A stretch of DNA of 60,876 nucleotides, the filler included, from Candidatus Zapsychrus exili (GTDB lineage Bacteria; Omnitrophota; Gorgyraeia; Zapsychrales; Zapsychraceae): the NCBI GenBank assembly GCA_030765585.1. It is 8 parts of 8 records of this genome, joined end to end, with 100 filler letters (N's around TTAATTAATTAA, not from the genome) between each part and the next. Parts side by side here need not be neighbours in the genome. Positions count along the whole stretch, not along the records: positions 49,669 to 55,008 come from JAVCCJ010000033.1; 7 more parts are not named here. One strand, 5' to 3'. Position 1 is the first letter of the stretch; the number at the start of each line of letters is the position of its first letter. Below the pieces are notes generated by a model. It was not told the origin of the DNA and did not search any database. It saw nothing but the letters and a program-made list of their open reading frames with translations. This document shows positions 7,387 through 55,008 of this stretch, in pieces. Both the position numbers and the translations under genes were made by a program.

Positions 7387-9294
7387 ATGACATTTGAATC
7401 TCTTGAACTTTTTGTTGGGCAAATAATCGACTTTGATTGTTTATTAAACAATCTTGCAGCCTTAAGATACAGAAAAACAAAAAAAGCGATACAAGAAGGT
7501 GACTATAGCTACAGAGGAGAGATAATAGATATCTATCCTATAAATTTCGATTCTCCGATACGCATTGACTTTAATAATGACAAAATACAGCGAATAGCAA
7601 GCGTAAACATTGCAACTGGAAAATCTATCTGGCAGCATAAAATAACAATAATCCTACCAAATAAAATAACCAACAAAAAACAAGTATTCTCCTCGGACAT
7701 ACCTTTAAACAACTTTGTAGACATAAGAGAAGGTGATTATGTTGTTCATCATAATCACGGCATTGGAAAGTTTCTAGGTATAACAGAACTATCCGTCAAC
7801 AATGAACTTAAGCCACATTTTGTTATTGAATATTCTCAAGGAGATAAGCTTTTTGTTCCAAAGCACGACATACGACTTGTGCAAAAATATTTAAGTTTCA
7901 ATAAAAAACCTCCAAGATTATATAAGCTTGGAAGTAAAGAATGGAAAAGAGTCAGAAGCCATATTCAAAAAAACCTGCAAAGAATTGCAGCCGAACTTCT
8001 TCACATACAAGCAGCGAGAGCATCATTAAAAGGATTTGCATACTCAAAAGACACTGAGTGGCAAAAAGAATTTGAAGATTCATTTCCTTTTAAAGATACT
8101 CCAGATCAAATAGAGACATTAATTAATGTCAAAAAAGATATGGAGTCGATTAAGCCAATGGATAGATTACTCTGTGGAGACGTAGGATATGGAAAAACAG
8201 AGGTGGCATTAAGGGCTGCATTTAAAGCTGTTATGGATAATAAACAAGTAGCTGTCTTAGTTCCGACAACCATACTTGCAGAACAGCATTACTATAATTT
8301 CTCAAATCGTCTTAAAAAATATCCTGTTAATATAGCTATGCTTAGTCGCTTTAGAACAAAAAGTGAGCAAACAAAAATAGTAAAAGAATTAAACGAAGGA
8401 AACGTTGATATAGTAATAGGGACACACCGGCTTCTATCGAAAGATATAGGCTTTAAAGATTTAGGACTTATCATAATTGATGAGGAACAACGCTTTGGAG
8501 TTAAGTCAAAAGAAAAACTAAAACACTACCGAATGCTTGCAGATGTACTAACACTTACTGCAACGCCCATACCACGTACTTTATATATGTCACTAACAGG
8601 GGCGAGAGATATGTCTATAATATCCACACCTCCACAAAACCGAGTGCCTGTTGAAACGCATATAGAAAAATTTGATGAAGATATGATAAAAACCTCAATA
8701 ACCAAAGAATTGAAAAGAAACGGCCAAGTGTTTTTTCTTCATAATCGTGTTGAAGATATCAATAAAATTGCTAAGATAATAGAGCGAATAGTTGATGGAG
8801 CCAGAGTCGCGATTGGTCACGGGCAAATGGCACCTCGTGCACTTGAAGAAATAATGATAAAGTTTCTTGAAGGTGAGATCGATGTTTTAGTCTGTACTAC
8901 AATTATAGAATCTGGTATAGATATTCCAAACGCAAATACATTAATCGTTAATCACGCAGACAGGTTTGGGCTTTCAGATCTTCATCAGCTTAGAGGTAGA
9001 GTGGGAAGGGCAAATAAAAAGGCGTACGCCTATTTTATTGTTCCTCCTCGCAAAGTCCTATCTTCTATAGCAAAAGCTAGAATTGAAGCAATAGAGAAAT
9101 ATAAGGATTTAGGGTCAGGCTTTCATATTGCTTTTGAAGACATGCAACTACGCGGGACAGGAAATTTATTAGGACAAGAACAACACGGCTATATAGTTTC
9201 AATTGGATTTGATTTATATTGCCGACTATTAAAAGAATCTGTTGAAAACTTAAAAAAACAAATGGAAGAAGGTTCAAATGATAAAACTAGCTAA
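7387..9294 (+). CDS. mfd: transcription-repair coupling factor, compact form
   Basis: UvrB-like segment, RNAP-interaction domain (GDYVVHHNHGIG), helicase motifs CGDVGYGKT, DEEQRFG, TATPIPRT, QLRGRVGR and TRG motif; ends before the usual C-terminal domain. Confidence 0.93.
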   Translation: MTFESLELFVGQIIDFDCLLNNLAALRYRKTKKAIQEGDYSYRGEIIDIYPINFDSPIRIDFNNDKIQRIASVNIATGKSIWQHKITIILPNKITNKKQVFSSDIPLNNFVDIREGDYVVHHNHGIGKFLGITELSVNNELKPHFVIEYSQGDKLFVPKHDIRLVQKYLSFNKKPPRLYKLGSKEWKRVRSHIQKNLQRIAAELLHIQAARASLKGFAYSKDTEWQKEFEDSFPFKDTPDQIETLINVKKDMESIKPMDRLLCGDVGYGKTEVALRAAFKAVMDNKQVAVLVPTTILAEQHYYNFSNRLKKYPVNIAMLSRFRTKSEQTKIVKELNEGNVDIVIGTHRLLSKDIGFKDLGLIIIDEEQRFGVKSKEKLKHYRMLADVLTLTATPIPRTLYMSLTGARDMSIISTPPQNRVPVETHIEKFDEDMIKTSITKELKRNGQVFFLHNRVEDINKIAKIIERIVDGARVAIGHGQMAPRALEEIMIKFLEGEIDVLVCTTIIESGIDIPNANTLIVNHADRFGLSDLHQLRGRVGRANKKAYAYFIVPPRKVLSSIAKARIEAIEKYKDLGSGFHIAFEDMQLRGTGNLLGQEQHGYIVSIGFDLYCRLLKESVENLKKQMEEGSNDKTS

Positions 9295-49668: not shown

Positions 49669-49698
49669 AACTATTGATAAAATATGTTATCAATAGTT
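49669..49698. other. dif-like palindromic recombination site (left)
   Basis: AACTATTGATAA-AATATG-TTATCAATAGTT; perfect 12-bp arms, 6-bp spacer, at the first base of the contig. Confidence 0.7.
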
Positions 49699-49729
49699 TG
49701 TTCAAAAAATATACGAAAAATAAATTCAT

Positions 49730-50737
49730 ATGAGTAGAAAATTTAAAATATTATCAATCGATGGTGGTGGAATTAGAGGCTTGATTCCTGCAATGTTTTT
49801 GGAGGAGATTGAAAAATCTCTACCCGAGCCAATTTGGAAATATTTTGACTTGGTATGCGGAACAAGCACAGGGGGCATTATTGCGTTAGCTATTGCAGTT
49901 GAAAAGAAAATGAGTGAAATAAGAGAAATTTATGAAAAAGACGGTTATGAAATATTTCCTTTAGAAAATAAAAATAATCTTATTAAATCAGCCATATCAA
50001 ATATAAACATGTTGTTTGGTCATGGAGAAAAATATCCTTCTAGTTTTCTTGAGAAAAAGCTTAAAACAGTTTTTAAGATTAATGATGATTATTATAGGAT
50101 GAATGATTCAAAGCTTGGCGTGTGTATTCCTTCTATTAATATTTCTAAGGGTCAAGTTGGCATTTTTAAAACTCCTCACAAAGTGGTTATTCCGAAAAAA
50201 GAAAAATTCTTTTCTGATGAAAACCTAGAAATGTGGAATGTTGCAAGGGCAACTAGTGCGGCACCGACATATTTTAAAACAACTAAGATAAATAGTTCCT
50301 TTTATATTGATGGTGGTCTTTTTGCAAATAATCCTAGTCTTGTTGGTATTATTGAGGCCAGGCGATGTAATTTTGACTTATCGGAGATATCATTGCTGTC
50401 ATTAGGAACTGGTGGCTCCACATATCAGATAGATGATAAAAGAGCTGAGAAAATGAATCTGTTAAACTGGGGCGGCGTGAAAGGAATTTTTGAAATTTCT
50501 TTAGAATCTCAATCGAATTCTATTGAGAACAGTATTTCCTTACTTAATCCAAAAGAATATATTCGAGTACAACATAATTTTAAAGAGAATATAGGTTTAG
50601 ATGACATGGGGCAATTGAATAATCTTGTGAAAGCTGCTGAATATTTAATAAAAGAAAAGAAAGAGCAGGTTTTGTCTTCTTTTTTTAATGATTTAGCTGC
50701 AGGACATTTGTACCCAATTAAGAAAGAAGTTAAATAA
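49730..50737 (+). CDS. capV: CBASS patatin-like phospholipase effector
   Basis: DGGGIRG, GTSTG, DGG catalytic motifs; directly upstream of a CD-NTase. Confidence 0.9.
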   Translation: MSRKFKILSIDGGGIRGLIPAMFLEEIEKSLPEPIWKYFDLVCGTSTGGIIALAIAVEKKMSEIREIYEKDGYEIFPLENKNNLIKSAISNINMLFGHGEKYPSSFLEKKLKTVFKINDDYYRMNDSKLGVCIPSINISKGQVGIFKTPHKVVIPKKEKFFSDENLEMWNVARATSAAPTYFKTTKINSSFYIDGGLFANNPSLVGIIEARRCNFDLSEISLLSLGTGGSTYQIDDKRAEKMNLLNWGGVKGIFEISLESQSNSIENSISLLNPKEYIRVQHNFKENIGLDDMGQLNNLVKAAEYLIKEKKEQVLSSFFNDLAAGHLYPIKKEVK

Positions 50738-50750
50738 AAAGGAGAATACA

Positions 50751-51713
50751 ATGGCTGATTGTAATGATTTATTTCAAAGTTATTTTACTGCGATTAATAT
50801 CGATACCACAAAGAAAACAAATTTAAAAACGGCAAGAGAAGCAATTAGAGGAAAGATTAGGAATTACTTTAAAGATGAGTTGGGATTTAATCTTCCAAAA
50901 TTTCATGGTCAAGGGTCATATATGATGAAAACAATCGTTAATCCTTTGGACGATGAATATGACATAGATGATGGGATATATTTACAGCATTTAAATGATG
51001 GGAAAGCAGATTGGCCTAATCCAAAAGAAGTGCATCAATGGGTTTATGATGCGGTTAAAGGGCACACAAAAGAAGAGGCTGTAGATAAGCCAACATGCAT
51101 TAGAGTTATTTATGCTGGGAATTATCACGTAGACTTACCAATATATGCTTTTTGTGGTGAAGTGCCTTATCTGGCAAATACAGGGGTGAAAGGATGGCAT
51201 GAAAGTGACCCTAAAAAAATTACTGATTGGCTTATAGAAAAAGTTTCAAATAAATCGGAACAATTAAGGACTATAATAAAATATTTAAAGGCATGGGCAG
51301 ATTATCAATCTTTAGAGCATGGAGAAATGCCAAGCGGACTTGTTATTACAAAATTAGTAGTTGATAATTATGTTGAGCGAGTTAGAGATGATGTTAGTTT
51401 TGCACGCACTATCAGTTCAATAAATGATAGCATAAAGGTAAATTTTGATATATTGAATCCTGTTGACAGTGAGGAAGTAATAAGTGATAGGATGACAGTA
51501 TCTGTTAAAGAATCTTTTAAAAAGCTTATTCAAAGATTATCAAATAATGGTGAGTCTGCAATAAATGAGGAAAGTAAAAAAAAGGCATGTGTATTGTGGA
51601 AGTCAGAATTTGGTGACAGATTTTATGATTGTGATAGTTTTAAGGAAAAAGTTACAGCTATGGCAACATCTTCCCCTGCACTATTAAAAAATGATGCAAG
51701 GTCAGCAAAATAA
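50751..51713 (+). CDS. CBASS cGAS/DncV-like nucleotidyltransferase (CD-NTase)
   Basis: QGSY..KT..P, YDIDDGIY, HVDLPIY, SDP, KYLKAW; AGGAG RBS. Confidence 0.93.
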   Translation: MADCNDLFQSYFTAINIDTTKKTNLKTAREAIRGKIRNYFKDELGFNLPKFHGQGSYMMKTIVNPLDDEYDIDDGIYLQHLNDGKADWPNPKEVHQWVYDAVKGHTKEEAVDKPTCIRVIYAGNYHVDLPIYAFCGEVPYLANTGVKGWHESDPKKITDWLIEKVSNKSEQLRTIIKYLKAWADYQSLEHGEMPSGLVITKLVVDNYVERVRDDVSFARTISSINDSIKVNFDILNPVDSEEVISDRMTVSVKESFKKLIQRLSNNGESAINEESKKKACVLWKSEFGDRFYDCDSFKEKVTAMATSSPALLKNDARSAK

Positions 51714-51714
51714 A

Positions 51715-52707
51715 GTGATTGATGCTTTTTATAAAGATAGAATATTAACAGCGAAGAAATATCTTAAATCTAAATTCAACTTATCTGTTTGTGATAAAAA
51801 AGACTCAGATATTGCGAGAATAGAAAAAAGTAGATGTTTGCCAAAATGTTTTAATGATTTTGAAGTATGGAAAGTCAAAGTCAACACACCATTCGGAGAT
51901 TGCTTTCTCTTAATATTTATACCTGCCAGGTTCCCAGATAATTTCCCTAAAATATTTTTGCCGTTTGATATTTTTAATAGAATATATCCTGTCCCACATA
52001 TAGATAAAAATGGGTTCATTTGTACACGAGATGAGTCTTTAATAGTAATAAATGATGAAATGCCGGGGCAGGCTATTGAGGAATTAATACATGTTGCAAT
52101 AGAAATTTTAGATAATGGGATAAATAAGAGAAATGAGGATGATTATTTTAAAGAGCTAATTGCGTATTGGAATGATAATGCTGACGCATTGGTGATGACA
52201 AATTTTGAAGTATTGAACAAGCCAAGACTACTTAGTCTTTTTGCATTGAATGATAAATTGTTCGGCCGTACAGACATAATCGGACAGTCTTTAGAATATT
52301 TAGATAATTGGTTAAAAAACTTTAATGTTTCCATTAAGGCGGAGCATAAAGAAAGAATATTATTTATTCCAGTGAAGCATGTCTTGCCTTTTGATTTAGA
52401 AACATTTCAAGATGTGTATAGTTATTTACAGAAGGCTGTTGATGCAAAGTTGTTCATACATGTTGATGATTATTATAATAGAAAACAAAGCAACTATTCT
52501 GTAATTTGTGCAATGGAAATAAACGGAAGTCTAGGGTTGTTCGGGTGGAGCCATCCTGGTTGGATGAATAGAGAGGTTAAAGGATTCAGAAGAGGTCACG
52601 TTCCTTTCAGTGTTTTTCGACATGAAAGATGGATTAAATCTATAAAAATTAATAGAGTAAAAATGTACAGATTAGATGAATTACGTCTTTCTGCCAGAGA
52701 GAATTAA
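51715..52707 (+). CDS. cap2: CBASS Cap2 N-terminal part (E2-like domain)
   Basis: FP..FPKI, PHIDKNGFIC, E..AYW; probable GTG start at 51715. Confidence 0.8.
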   Translation: MIDAFYKDRILTAKKYLKSKFNLSVCDKKDSDIARIEKSRCLPKCFNDFEVWKVKVNTPFGDCFLLIFIPARFPDNFPKIFLPFDIFNRIYPVPHIDKNGFICTRDESLIVINDEMPGQAIEELIHVAIEILDNGINKRNEDDYFKELIAYWNDNADALVMTNFEVLNKPRLLSLFALNDKLFGRTDIIGQSLEYLDNWLKNFNVSIKAEHKERILFIPVKHVLPFDLETFQDVYSYLQKAVDAKLFIHVDDYYNRKQSNYSVICAMEINGSLGLFGWSHPGWMNREVKGFRRGHVPFSVFRHERWIKSIKINRVKMYRLDELRLSAREN

Positions 52708-53466
52708 GTGAAAAAGAAACACTCTATAGCAATCTTAGGTTGTGGCTCCGTGGGTAGTTTTTTATCAATGGAGGTGGCTAAGGGTGGAACTGACAAGATA
52801 ATGCTAATGGACAATGAAATCCTTGCTCCTGAGAATGTTGTGAGGCATTTATGCAGCTTAGATGATGCTTCAAAAGAGCTAAAGAAAGTAATAACTGTAG
52901 AAAGTGTTATAAGAAATAAATTTCCAAAAATTAACTGCATATCCTGCGATGATGATATCTTGGAATATTTACATAAAAAAGAATGCAAATTTAATAATTA
53001 TGACATCATAGTTTCATGCGTGGGTAATCTTTCTGTTGAGAGACGTTTAGATTTTGCGGTTAAGCATAATATATTTTGTAAGGATTTAATTTATTTATGG
53101 GTAGAGCCGTATGCGATAGCTGGCCACATACTTTATATCCCTAGAAATAAAGCAGGAACTTTAAAAGAACATTTTACAGACAAGGGTGATTTTAAGTATT
53201 CAGTATTAAACAATGCATTTGTTTTTTCTAGGAGAGAAACAGGTTGTCAAAGTTCATTTATTCCTTATTCATCTGATGAATTAGAGCAGTTTGTGATATA
53301 TGCAGGAAAAATAATAAACGAATTAATTGGTGAAAGTTATAAAGAAAGTGTTCTATATTCATGGCTGGGAAATTTAAGGATGGCTTATGAAAAAGGGTTA
53401 ACAATAAATAATAAGTATATAGATTGTCTGCCATATACTACAGTAAGAAATAATCTTGATATTTAA
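52708..53466 (+). CDS. cap2: CBASS Cap2 C-terminal part (ThiF/E1-like domain)
   Basis: ILGCGSVGS, D.E.L.PENVVRH, WVEPY..AGH, ETGC...FIPY; same frame as the E2 part, separated by one TAA. Confidence 0.85.
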   Translation: MKKKHSIAILGCGSVGSFLSMEVAKGGTDKIMLMDNEILAPENVVRHLCSLDDASKELKKVITVESVIRNKFPKINCISCDDDILEYLHKKECKFNNYDIIVSCVGNLSVERRLDFAVKHNIFCKDLIYLWVEPYAIAGHILYIPRNKAGTLKEHFTDKGDFKYSVLNNAFVFSRRETGCQSSFIPYSSDELEQFVIYAGKIINELIGESYKESVLYSWLGNLRMAYEKGLTINNKYIDCLPYTTVRNNLDI

Positions 53467-53472
53467 TTGCTT

Positions 53473-53952
53473 ATGAAAAAGAAATTGACAAAAACAATAT
53501 TTAGCTGTTCCTCAAGAGAGGTTAGGTTTTCATCTGAAGTTTTGAAAGAGTTAAGTACATTTGAGCAAAATGGAAAACAACCAGAATCAGGTGGTATTTT
53601 ACTGGGTAAAGTTTATACGCATTATGATGAAATTCTAGAAATTACCACTCCTGGTCAACTTGATAAACATGGTTCATTCTTTTTCTATCGAGCAAAAAAA
53701 TCAGCACAAAAAGTGATAAACAAGAAATGGAAGCAAAGTAAGGGAGAATTAATATATCTAGGCGAGTGGCATACTCATTGCGAAAAAAATCCCACCCCAT
53801 CTTTGGAAGATAAGAAAATGATAAAGAACATGCTGACTACAACTAAAATGGAAATTAATTATTTATATTTAGTTATAGTAGGACAAGATAATACCTATTT
53901 TTCTGCAAGACAAGTAACCACAGGATTTATTGTATTAGAGCAGCTAATTTAA
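53473..53952 (+). CDS. cap3: CBASS Cap3 JAB/MPN isopeptidase
   Basis: ESGGILLG, YLGEWHTH...PS..D. Confidence 0.9.
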   Translation: MKKKLTKTIFSCSSREVRFSSEVLKELSTFEQNGKQPESGGILLGKVYTHYDEILEITTPGQLDKHGSFFFYRAKKSAQKVINKKWKQSKGELIYLGEWHTHCEKNPTPSLEDKKMIKNMLTTTKMEINYLYLVIVGQDNTYFSARQVTTGFIVLEQLI

Positions 53953-53978
53953 TATTAGATATAACTAATAGACAGCAT

Positions 53979-54938
53979 TTAATAATTCACCTTGAAAGTA
54001 GGCGAATCCATCAAATCCTCACCTCGTTTATCATAAATCCTCGTCGTAGCAATATTTGCATGTCCTAAATAATCCTGAACCTTCCCTAAATCAGCTTTAT
54101 TATTCAAAGAATTCGTTGCAAACGTTGCTCGGAGAGAGTGGGGATGAAAATTATCCGTATCAATGCCGGACACACCTGCCCATTGCATAACAATTTTATA
54201 AATTGCATAACTCGACATATGAGTAATATTCCCGTCTTTATCTTTACGTTTCTTAAGAGCGCAGAAGAGAGGGGACTCAAGATCTTTCTTTCGACCATCT
54301 TTCTCTAAATACATATAAATACGTTGTTGCGTCAAAGGGTGAAGGGGGAGGTCTCTGGTTTTAGATCCTTTGCCTTTTACTCGTAAATGAGGCACACTCT
54401 TAACACTGTGTATGCTCTTTACCTTTAAATCTTTAACTTCTGAGCGTCTAAGGCCATGATAAAGGAAAACAGCTAATATGGCACGATCTCTGAGACCTTG
54501 TATGGTCTTGTCTGTTGGAGCCTCAAGTAATTTCTTAGCTTCGATATCACTAATAGGATCTGATTTGCCAATATTAGACTCAACCTTTGGCCGAGTTATA
54601 TTACTGCAAGGATTATCTCTAATAGCAGATCTTTCACAAAAATATTTAAACAGAGCAGAGACTGCCGAGATCTTTCTTGCAATACTCTCATTTGATAAAC
54701 CAGTTTTTCTTAAATGACTTATCCAATTAGTTACATGTTTACGTGTAACTAAACGATAATCTTCAGGAGTTTCAATCTTAAGAAAGGTTTTAAATTCATT
54801 AACATCAAACTTATAAGCTGTAGCAGTCTTTTCGCTTTTGTTGCGACGTTCGGCGATCCAGTCGCTTTCAGGTGGGATATCCTTCAAAATGTGGTATTCT
54901 TTGACCTCTAAGGGTCGTTTAGGAGTCTTTTCAGGCAT
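53979..54938 (-). CDS. tyrosine recombinase (resolvase/Xer-like, no arm domain)
   Basis: RDRAIL..GLRRSE, KGKGSK.R, HSLRATFAT, LGHANIATTRIYD. Confidence 0.94.
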   Translation of the reverse strand: MPEKTPKRPLEVKEYHILKDIPPESDWIAERRNKSEKTATAYKFDVNEFKTFLKIETPEDYRLVTRKHVTNWISHLRKTGLSNESIARKISAVSALFKYFCERSAIRDNPCSNITRPKVESNIGKSDPISDIEAKKLLEAPTDKTIQGLRDRAILAVFLYHGLRRSEVKDLKVKSIHSVKSVPHLRVKGKGSKTRDLPLHPLTQQRIYMYLEKDGRKKDLESPLFCALKKRKDKDGNITHMSSYAIYKIVMQWAGVSGIDTDNFHPHSLRATFATNSLNNKADLGKVQDYLGHANIATTRIYDKRGEDLMDSPTFKVNY

Positions 54939-54944
54939 GCAACC

Positions 54945-54973
54945 ATTATAACTTAGTATTAAATGGTTATCAA
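54945..54973 (-). promoter_or_regulatory. sigma70 promoter giving a leaderless recombinase mRNA
   Basis: TTGATA-N17-TATAAT-N6-ATG, no RBS; overlapped by an AACCATT/AATGGTT inverted repeat. Confidence 0.6.
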
Positions 54974-54976
54974 CCT

Positions 54977-55008
54977 TTAGTTGCTATAATGTATATTATA
55001 GCAACTAA
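54977..55008. other. dif-like palindromic recombination site (right)
   Basis: TTAGTTGCTATAA-TGTATA-TTATAGCAACTAA; perfect 13-bp arms, 6-bp spacer, ends at the last base of the contig. Confidence 0.75.

Follow-up and report, generated by a model that had tools for sequence, protein, structure and literature searches.

C120 Is a Defense and Recombinase Block Bounded by Two Symmetric Sites

The window analyzed here, a stretch of 60,876 nt, consists of eight contigs of one assembly of the uncultured Omnitrophota bacterium Candidatus Zapsychrus exili (GCA_030765585.1; 129 contigs, 2.04 Mb, 34% G+C, rated 96% complete), joined by N/TTAATTAATTAA linkers. One entire contig, C120 (5340 nt, window positions 49669–55008), holds a cyclic oligonucleotide-based antiphage signaling system (CBASS) and the gene of a Xer-like tyrosine recombinase, termed P0001, between two short palindromic sites, L and R. 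This block has exact boundaries and lies in two genomic contexts, and its recombinase belongs to a family in which gene and site are linked family-wide. Most likely, with a probability of about 0.55, C120 is a dif-module-like cassette whose own recombinase has swapped it between cognate sites that were already in place. P0001 would in this case bind the sites and catalyze the exchange, presumably by a two-step route.

Site L (49669–49698) is a perfect 12-6-12 palindrome, AACTATTGATAA-AATATG-TTATCAATAGTT, which matches the consensus site of the family, while site R (54977–55008) is a perfect 13-6-13 palindrome, TTAGTTGCTATAA-TGTATA-TTATAGCAACTAA, and adjoins the recombinase promoter. Both palindromes touch the linkers and are therefore the true ends of the contig, in agreement with the initial annotation, which had described a contig starting and ending with symmetric sites. 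The arms of L and R carry ATAA/TTAT at their inner ends, and in each of L, R and a third family palindrome, S3, one arm repeats the other in inverted orientation exactly or almost exactly. Between L and R, about 5 of the 12–13 arm positions differ, as do the spacers. A palindrome with arms of at least 7 nt was found within 6 nt of a contig end in 3 of the 129 contigs, and only C120 carried palindromes with arms of at least 12 nt at both ends. The genome contains 10 TAA-N6-TTA palindromes in which no fewer than 11 bases pair, and 7 of them are instances of L, R and S3; five block-shuffled genomes yielded 0, 0, 1, 1, and 1.

The Same Block Occurs in Two Genomic Neighborhoods

Exact end overlaps of 127 nt connect C120 (plus strand) to two contigs on either side, with C94 (minus) and C129 (plus) leading into L and C35 (plus) and C36 (plus) following R. 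The only other 127-nt end links of the assembly were a self-overlap of C26 and the link between C53 and C91. As the overlap word of 127 nt is much longer than the sites of 30–32 nt, the sites alone cannot branch the graph and the whole 5340-nt block is shared. The initial annotation had attributed the contig breaks to varying neighbors, and the two in-edges and two out-edges of the overlap graph bear this out. In C94, C129, C35, and C36, the complete palindrome is present together with 95–97 nt of C120 on one side and unique DNA on the other; since all four read through the palindromes, reads do cross the sites. The two left flanks, like the two right ones, are unrelated from the outer edge of the palindrome onward, and the 100%-identical block ends 0–2 nt from this edge. 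In an independent assembly (k = 31) of the public sequencing run X1, possibly from the source sample, a 5448-nt contig begins at the first base of L and extends 108 nt past R, and a 937-nt contig has only the 30 nt of L in common with it. Runs X2 and X3 yielded identical fragments at low depth.

The neighboring contigs differ in their gene content. C94 carries AbiEi/AbiEii abutting L, followed by NikA-like and MobA-type relaxase genes and Fic, and C129 encodes proteins without family matches. Beyond R, C35 continues with HicB/HicA, then S3, then a polysaccharide deacetylase, CorA and ClpB; C36 holds an unknown gene, an S24 cI-like repressor, an excisionase-like helix-turn-helix (HTH) protein, a 389-aa integrase and a tRNA-Ser gene. 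Judged from the sequences, the contigs may pair as C129-C120-C35 and C94-C120-C36, and the latter copy would then lie inside an island with relaxase and integrase. The deacetylase flanking in C35 is itself sporadic (4 of 44 genomes of the family, 31–35% identity), and synteny is therefore unusable as a test for an empty site.

Further repeats were observed in these neighbors. The first 47 nt of the tRNA-Ser gene beside the 389-aa integrase (C36 3695–3741) recur exactly at C54 7729–7775; they may be the repeat at which the island with one of the cassette copies is attached. C54 also contains an 80%-identical paralog of the Fic region of C94. A 620-nt segment of C129 (1–620) is present in inverted orientation and with 96% identity in C35 (21891–22509), and C129 overlaps C58 by 112 nt.

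Junction Fine Structure Is Consistent With Crossover Within Pre-existing Sites

Beyond the perfect palindromes, the flanks partly continue the arm symmetry. The outer-arm extension of L matches the inner arm at 16 of 17 positions in C129 and at 16 of 18 in C94, that of R at 15 of 15 in the C36 context and at 14 of 15 in the C35 context. Overall these extensions are imperfect and different in each context, and by a rough estimate the extra matches would arise by chance with a probability of about 0.002. A private outer-arm extension for each flank fits crossover within pre-existing sites and not the transposition of a block that carries complete sites along.

S3 is located at C35 830–865 and has the spacer TATCAA. 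HicB/HicA lie between R and S3 (C35 128–865) and thereby form a toxin-antitoxin cassette of ~740 bp beside the CBASS cassette. L, R, and S3, all in this linked region, were the only family sites of the genome that either scored above the shuffled null or were perfectly palindromic. In the C129 context, 2 nt left of L (C129 4738–4756), 17 nt reproduce the right part of S3 exactly (AATTATGATAAGTAGAA); no other repeat between the left and the right flanks was significant. Furthermore, a decayed L-like site is located ~215 nt right of S3 (C35 ~1078–1105). Both may be scars of earlier site-specific events, the 17-nt string perhaps of an integration or exchange via S3, which would be a hint of the C129–C35 pairing. 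An 11-mer common to the C94 flank and C35 was at chance level and was dismissed. L and R were also considered as attL and attR of one integration, which was rejected: each is internally symmetric, the two are mutually different, and their spacers differ.

Gene and Site Are Linked Throughout the Recombinase Family

The family is sporadic. Members were found in 5 of 401 sampled genomes of the phylum (E ≤ 1e-60) and in 16 of 168 genomes of the order (E ≤ 1e-70), where a single genome can have as many as 4 copies; such a distribution would be expected if the element is mobile. The genome under study encodes two other Xer-like proteins with 30–33% identity and no second member of the P0001 family. 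A protein identical to P0001 is also on record from a 9816-nt contig. In 15 further genomes of the order, 16 loci with 18 copies of the recombinase gene were examined. A (G/T)ATAA-N6-TTAT(C/A) palindrome lies ~20–400 nt upstream of the start codon in 16 of these copies and is missing at L129 and at L135, which is truncated; elsewhere in the same loci (~142 kb), only 4 comparable palindromes were present. From 80 metagenome loci, 12 were dropped for too little upstream DNA. Using a strict definition (at least 10 paired bases, 6-nt spacer, within 400 nt upstream), 31 of the 68 loci counted had a palindrome, compared to a background of 68 in 729 kb. A palindrome was also found 55 nt upstream of the homolog on the complete conjugative plasmid MEALZ_p of Methylotuvimicrobium alcaliphilum. 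The initial annotation had suggested a survey of homologous recombinases for flanking palindromes and variable defense cargo, and both were encountered, the latter in the form of varied defense or toxin-antitoxin genes (see below).

A position weight matrix (PWM) built from 33 metagenome sites gave the consensus TTTTACTATTGATAA-N6-TTATCAATAGTAAAA. L scored 26.8–28.9 bits and S3 19.4 bits, with a shuffled maximum of 15.5 bits. In the clade closest to P0001 the polarity of the spacer relative to the gene is fixed, with TAYAYM in 9 of 9 cases; in the clade with 42–49% identity (L022–L082) the common spacer occurs in both orientations about equally often, AATAnG-type and CnTATT-type 9 times each among the 33 training sites. 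S3-type sites were detected at 8 places in 7 of the 168 genomes of the order, a control with the reversed pattern giving 0, and they constitute the promoter-proximal site of a second recombinase subclade. We read the basic unit of the family as a site followed by its recombinase gene, a layout like that of Cre/loxP or XerS/difSL.

More distant homologs with ~45% identity were found in 133 plasmid records, 100 of them from Pseudomonas and 86 typed as conjugative; one of these homologs lies beside a RelE/CopG pair. Pseudomonas syringae plasmids (NZ_KY362372.1 and others) have up to three places for the gene. On pPs0170 it follows a 753-nt unknown gene and has a copper-resistance operon as its neighbor. 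A search of 5 kb around the P. syringae plasmid locus revealed no family site. No close relative was present at 32 loci of viral contigs, where the best identities were 31–37% with the top values on short partial matches, so the sequences give no sign of a phage origin of the family. A scan of genome contigs with the single recombinase protein returned only one distant relative of 29% identity.

Related Genomes Carry Site Arrays With Defense Cargo

Arrays of several sites were found in related genomes of Omnitrophota. On one contig of genome G378 (C80), GajA and GajB, preceded by an unknown gene, lie between an AATATG site and a TGTATA site; two small genes and the recombinase follow, and then an AATATA site. 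Another contig of this genome (C81) carries AbiEi/AbiEii, a PDC-S43 gene and a recombinase between a weak and a strong site. In genome G326, HigBA is followed by a site, two genes, a site (TGTATA), an HTH/Gp49 pair, a recombinase, a site (TGTATA) and a second recombinase, such that a 1.8-kb segment with toxin-antitoxin and recombinase genes is enclosed by two TGTATA sites. The last site of this series (C10, locus L013, 10644–10679) is asymmetric, a hybrid between divergently transcribed recombinase genes of different subclades; each of its arms resembles the type of the adjacent gene, which recalls the heterodimer sites of XerC/XerD. In genome G150, a site and a recombinase are located beside SIR2-like and PDC-S26 genes, and in the genus g24 the recombinase gene occupies one conserved chromosomal place in two species. 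In this order of Omnitrophota, further sites with other spacers appear to divide the surroundings of the basic unit into defense and toxin-antitoxin cassettes; C120 would be one of these, with the enzyme included.

Proposed Route of Exchange and Comparison With dif Modules

Among the known elements closest to C120 are the dif modules of Acinetobacter with their plasmid-borne dif (pdif) sites. These pdif sites are described as two 11-nt arms around a 6-bp spacer with an ATAA-6 bp-TTAT core, and sites of XerC/XerD as having asymmetric arms (PMC13141974). The same source states that recombination requires identical or nearly identical 6-bp spacers; neighboring sites differ. The modules often consist of toxin-antitoxin pairs, and their exchange is expected by two-step routes (PMC13141974, PMC6449649, PMC7399989). 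C120 shares the module layout, being bounded by short sites with the ATAA-6 bp-TTAT core and different neighboring spacers. Its arms, however, are symmetric, without the XerC/XerD asymmetry and the C/D alternation of modules. C120 also encodes a dedicated Xer-like recombinase, whereas pdif modules contain none and rely on the chromosomal XerC/XerD. Finally, the host is an uncultured Omnitrophota bacterium, the location chromosome or island and not a Rep_3 plasmid, and the cargo antiphage defense.

In the proposed mechanism, the Xer-like recombinase would bind as a homodimer to symmetric arms, i.e., inverted arms of 12–15 nt ending in ATAA around an asymmetric 6-bp spacer, and strand exchange would take place within the spacer. 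By analogy to the Acinetobacter dif modules, no recombination is expected between L and R, whose spacers (AATATG and TGTATA) are different. Simple excision by L × R recombination was therefore rejected, as already reasoned in the initial annotation and in line with the spacer rule for Acinetobacter (PMC13141974). Instead, the cassette would be swapped between regions which each already possess L and R. This would proceed in two steps, with a cointegrate formed at one site and resolved at the other, comparable to recombinase-mediated cassette exchange and to the two-step models for Acinetobacter. Such an exchange would have placed the same 5340-bp block of CBASS and recombinase both in the C35 context with HicAB, S3 and chromosomal genes and in the C36 island. 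L × L together with R × R exchange would explain why the boundaries are exact, why each flank has kept its private outer-arm variant and why there are two contexts.

Weighing of the Exchange Interpretation and Its Alternatives

A number of observations speak against an exchange by P0001. Rather than a duplication within one genome, the two contexts could represent two strains or wrongly binned contigs. The three public runs, searched as contigs and not as reads, showed neither circle junctions nor empty sites nor deletion joints, which permits no conclusion; a lone joint (51707/52003, with 287 other letters between) came from a divergent contig. Alternative neighbors branching at the site were not observed in three other assemblies, the contigs of which end 21–194 nt beyond the site: G445 and G494 had no alternative neighbor, and G489 only a 41–54-nt repeat which is not the site. 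In the genus g24, the variable DNA between G216 and G447 begins ~340 nt beyond the site, at no site. As the training sites of the PWM came from these very metagenome loci, counting with it there is circular, and such counts were not relied on. R reached only 15.2 bits, within the shuffled range; it was counted as a family site because it is perfectly symmetric, lies at the promoter and has a core, CTATAA-N6-TTATAG, that recurs upstream of the homologs L060, L127, and L134 and on MEALZ_p. One enzyme would have to accept the arms of both L and R. L fits the consensus of the clade 42–49% identical to P0001 and S3 the cognate site of the second subclade, and neither of these enzymes was found in the 96%-complete genome. 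Most loci of the 42–49%-identity clade show one site next to the recombinase gene and lack another within 10 kb, so the ancestral role of the site-recombinase unit may be resolution or integration and not cassette exchange.

These single-site loci favor a reading in which the recombinase and R form a one-enzyme resolution or stability unit, like Cre/loxP, XerS/difSL or ResD/rfsF, with the CBASS as mere neighboring cargo and the contexts produced by strain variation, nested transfer or homologous recombination. The homologs in 133 plasmid records, 86 of them typed as conjugative and one homolog beside RelE/CopG, and the fixed chromosomal place in two g24 species agree with such a unit. However, it leaves unexplained why a 5340-bp 100%-identical block ends 0–2 nt from family-site edges on both sides, why S3 bounds the next cassette, HicAB, and why the flanks show partial arm symmetry; 30-nt sites are also short for RecA-type exchange. 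We consider this reading rather unlikely. The sites might also be substrates of the host XerC/XerD, as in pdif or in the integrative mobile elements exploiting Xer recombination (IMEX), and the encoded recombinase accessory or a passenger. The ATAA-N6-TTAT core has the same layout as pdif sites (PMC13141974), and the genome contains two further Xer-like genes and two asymmetric dif-like sequences. Nevertheless, the arms of L and R are symmetric in contrast to the asymmetric XerC/XerD sites (PMC13141974), the sites track the sporadic P0001 family and not the host Xer genes, and the arms of the candidate host dif sequences are unlike L, R, and S3, which makes a role of the host enzymes unlikely.

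Alternatively, a larger element of ~6.2 kb (L-CBASS-recombinase-R-HicAB-S3) was integrated as a circle via S3, and the L-to-R block was shared later. The string AATTATGATAAGTAGAA 2 nt left of L in the C129 context and the decayed L-like site ~215 nt right of S3 would be consistent with this history, but the presumed target has no site-like left arm, the C129–C35 pairing it depends on is only inferred, and the second context still needs an exchange at L and R. We judge it quite improbable. An assembly artefact, in which palindrome hairpins broke the contigs during sequencing, was suggested by the palindromic nature of both ends of C120. It is hardly credible: four contigs read through the palindromes, and a second assembler produced the same left boundary. 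The hairpin explanation, which the initial annotation had named as a possible refutation, was excluded on these grounds. Its proposal of a self-moved pdif-like cassette was partly supported. Those of its suggested checks that were run came out in its favor, namely the varying neighbors, the read-through of the palindromes, the linkage of gene and site and the varied cargo; the mostly single-site homologs and the resemblance of L and S3 to the sites of other subclades weaken its generality, and P0001 is the putative mover.

Relation to Other Site-Specific Systems

loxP consists of inverted arms around an asymmetric spacer, and pairs of loxP sites with different spacers allow cassette exchange. 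In phage P1, the natural role of Cre/loxP is circularization and dimer resolution. C120 resembles this system in its perfect inverted arms, its short asymmetric spacers, a single recombinase and a site near the gene. It differs in a spacer of 6 instead of 8 bp and in several site variants per locus; the likeness concerns the layout. XerS/difSL and XerH/difH likewise have a Xer-family enzyme encoded beside its own dif-like site. Those systems are conserved single-copy housekeeping functions which replace XerCD, whereas the P0001 family is sporadic and multicopy and stands beside two other Xer-like genes. With members in 16 of 168 genomes and up to 4 copies, an assignment to the XerS/difSL type was rejected.

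With integrons, C120 has in common a tyrosine recombinase with a site at its promoter, next to defense cassettes separated by palindromic sites. In contrast, P0001 is not IntI, the sites are double-strand-type palindromes of 30–36 bp and not attC, and the cassettes are multigenic, one of them containing the recombinase. Integron membership was dismissed because the scores against integrase models lie far under the cut-offs. Integrons are known to carry antiphage cassettes, as stated in a preprint (bioRxiv 10.1101/2024.07.02.601686). Membership in the IMEX, defined by a host dif and dif-like flanks without an own recombinase, was rejected as well, since C120 has its own recombinase and symmetric sites unlike the host dif candidates. 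These candidates are two asymmetric sequences of the form CCTATAA-TAYATC-TTATGTTAACT, located at C62 ~8575–8613 and at C80 ~3177 (minus strand) of the genome under study. They are candidate dif sites of the host XerC/XerD, and the presence of two copies might mean that an element integrated at dif.

A literature search, which was not exhaustive, revealed papers on Acinetobacter dif modules, on defense cassettes of integrons and on recombinases in general, but no description of a site-bounded defense cassette with its own Xer-like recombinase. As a tentative generalization, which we regard as possible but not as the expected outcome, uncultivated bacteria might possess a third cassette platform beside integrons and the Acinetobacter dif modules: loxP-like arrays with few spacers and a Xer-like recombinase that travels in one cassette. 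Whole antiphage systems such as CBASS, Gabija and AbiE, along with toxin-antitoxin pairs, would in this way be redistributed among chromosomal arrays, mobilizable islands and plasmids. If the recombinase does swap cassettes bounded by its sites, this would explain how complete defense systems move as units among islands, plasmids and chromosomes in phyla where integrons and known transposons are rare, and the concept of dif modules would then apply outside Acinetobacter and without the host XerCD. A natural set of sites with different spacers served by one small recombinase would further be of interest for cassette-exchange tools. A practical rule for metagenomes would be to seek defense cargo between family sites near a P0001-type recombinase.

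Recombinase and CBASS Genes of the Cassette

P0001 (319 aa, 53979–54938, minus strand) is encoded convergently to the CBASS operon and contains the Pfam domains Phage_integrase and SAM_1. It scored 182 and 178 bits with the XerC and XerD models, under their cut-offs of 335 and 330, and lacked IntI identity (TIGR02249, 63.8 bits with a cut-off of 265; NF011946, 35.4 bits with a cut-off of 435). Its closest solved chains were E. coli XerD (1a0p) and then archaeal XerA. R164, K190/K193, H267, R270, H293, and Y302 were invariant across 27 homologous sequences; we take these residues to have the catalytic roles of the R-K-H-R-H/W-Y set of the family, and by this alignment the catalytic residue set of a tyrosine recombinase appears intact in P0001. 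A promoter-like site, TTGATA-17 nt-TATAAT, was predicted at 54945–54973 (minus strand) from an 11/12 match to the sigma-70 consensus alone. The initial annotation had the recombinase promoter abutting the right site; a gap of 3 nt indeed separates the -35 hexamer from R at the inner edge of the site, and the -10 hexamer lies 6 nt before the ATG, the gene being nearly leaderless. The overlap of R with the promoter probably also leads to autoregulation.

The remaining genes, all on the plus strand, follow the order capV-CD-NTase-cap2-cap3 of the initial annotation, which the domain models supported with the amendment that Cap2 is split. CapV (49730–50737) is a patatin-like, cyclic GMP-AMP-activated phospholipase effector (Pfam Patatin, 1.3e-25; NCBIfam CBASS_lipase, 266 bits, cut-off 200; PADLOC phospholipase effector, 299 bits). 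It is followed by the cGAS/DncV-like cyclase CD-NTase (50751–51713; NCBIfam cGAS, 234.6 bits, cut-off 150; PADLOC cyclase PDLC00774, 346 bits). Cap2 is divided into two open reading frames by an in-frame TAA at 52705–52707. The E2-like half (51691–52707; Pfam Prok-E2_B) ends in this TAA and covers positions 12–305 of the 566 of the PADLOC E1-E2 model PDLC00850; the ThiF-like E1 half (52708–53466; Pfam ThiF) starts with GTG right after the TAA in the same frame and covers positions 313–559. The Cap3 JAB isopeptidase (53467–53952) was recognized by Pfam Prok-JAB and PADLOC JAB (152.6 bits), with NCBIfam Cap3 at 80 bits, under the cut-off of 200. C120 contains all four gene types of a type II CBASS, i.e., CD-NTase, effector, Cap2 (E1/E2) and Cap3 (JAB), in the usual order and is a candidate system of this type. 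It differs from type II systems in the interrupted Cap2: the 12 PADLOC E1-E2 models matching the E2 half represent single proteins of 546–602 residues. Either a nonsense mutation has caused the split, or Cap2 consists of two pieces here.

Elsewhere in the assembly, contig C26 (5162 nt) contains a G+C-rich palindrome with 20-nt arms at 256–301. As it overlaps its own end by 127 nt, C26 is probably a small circular replicon.

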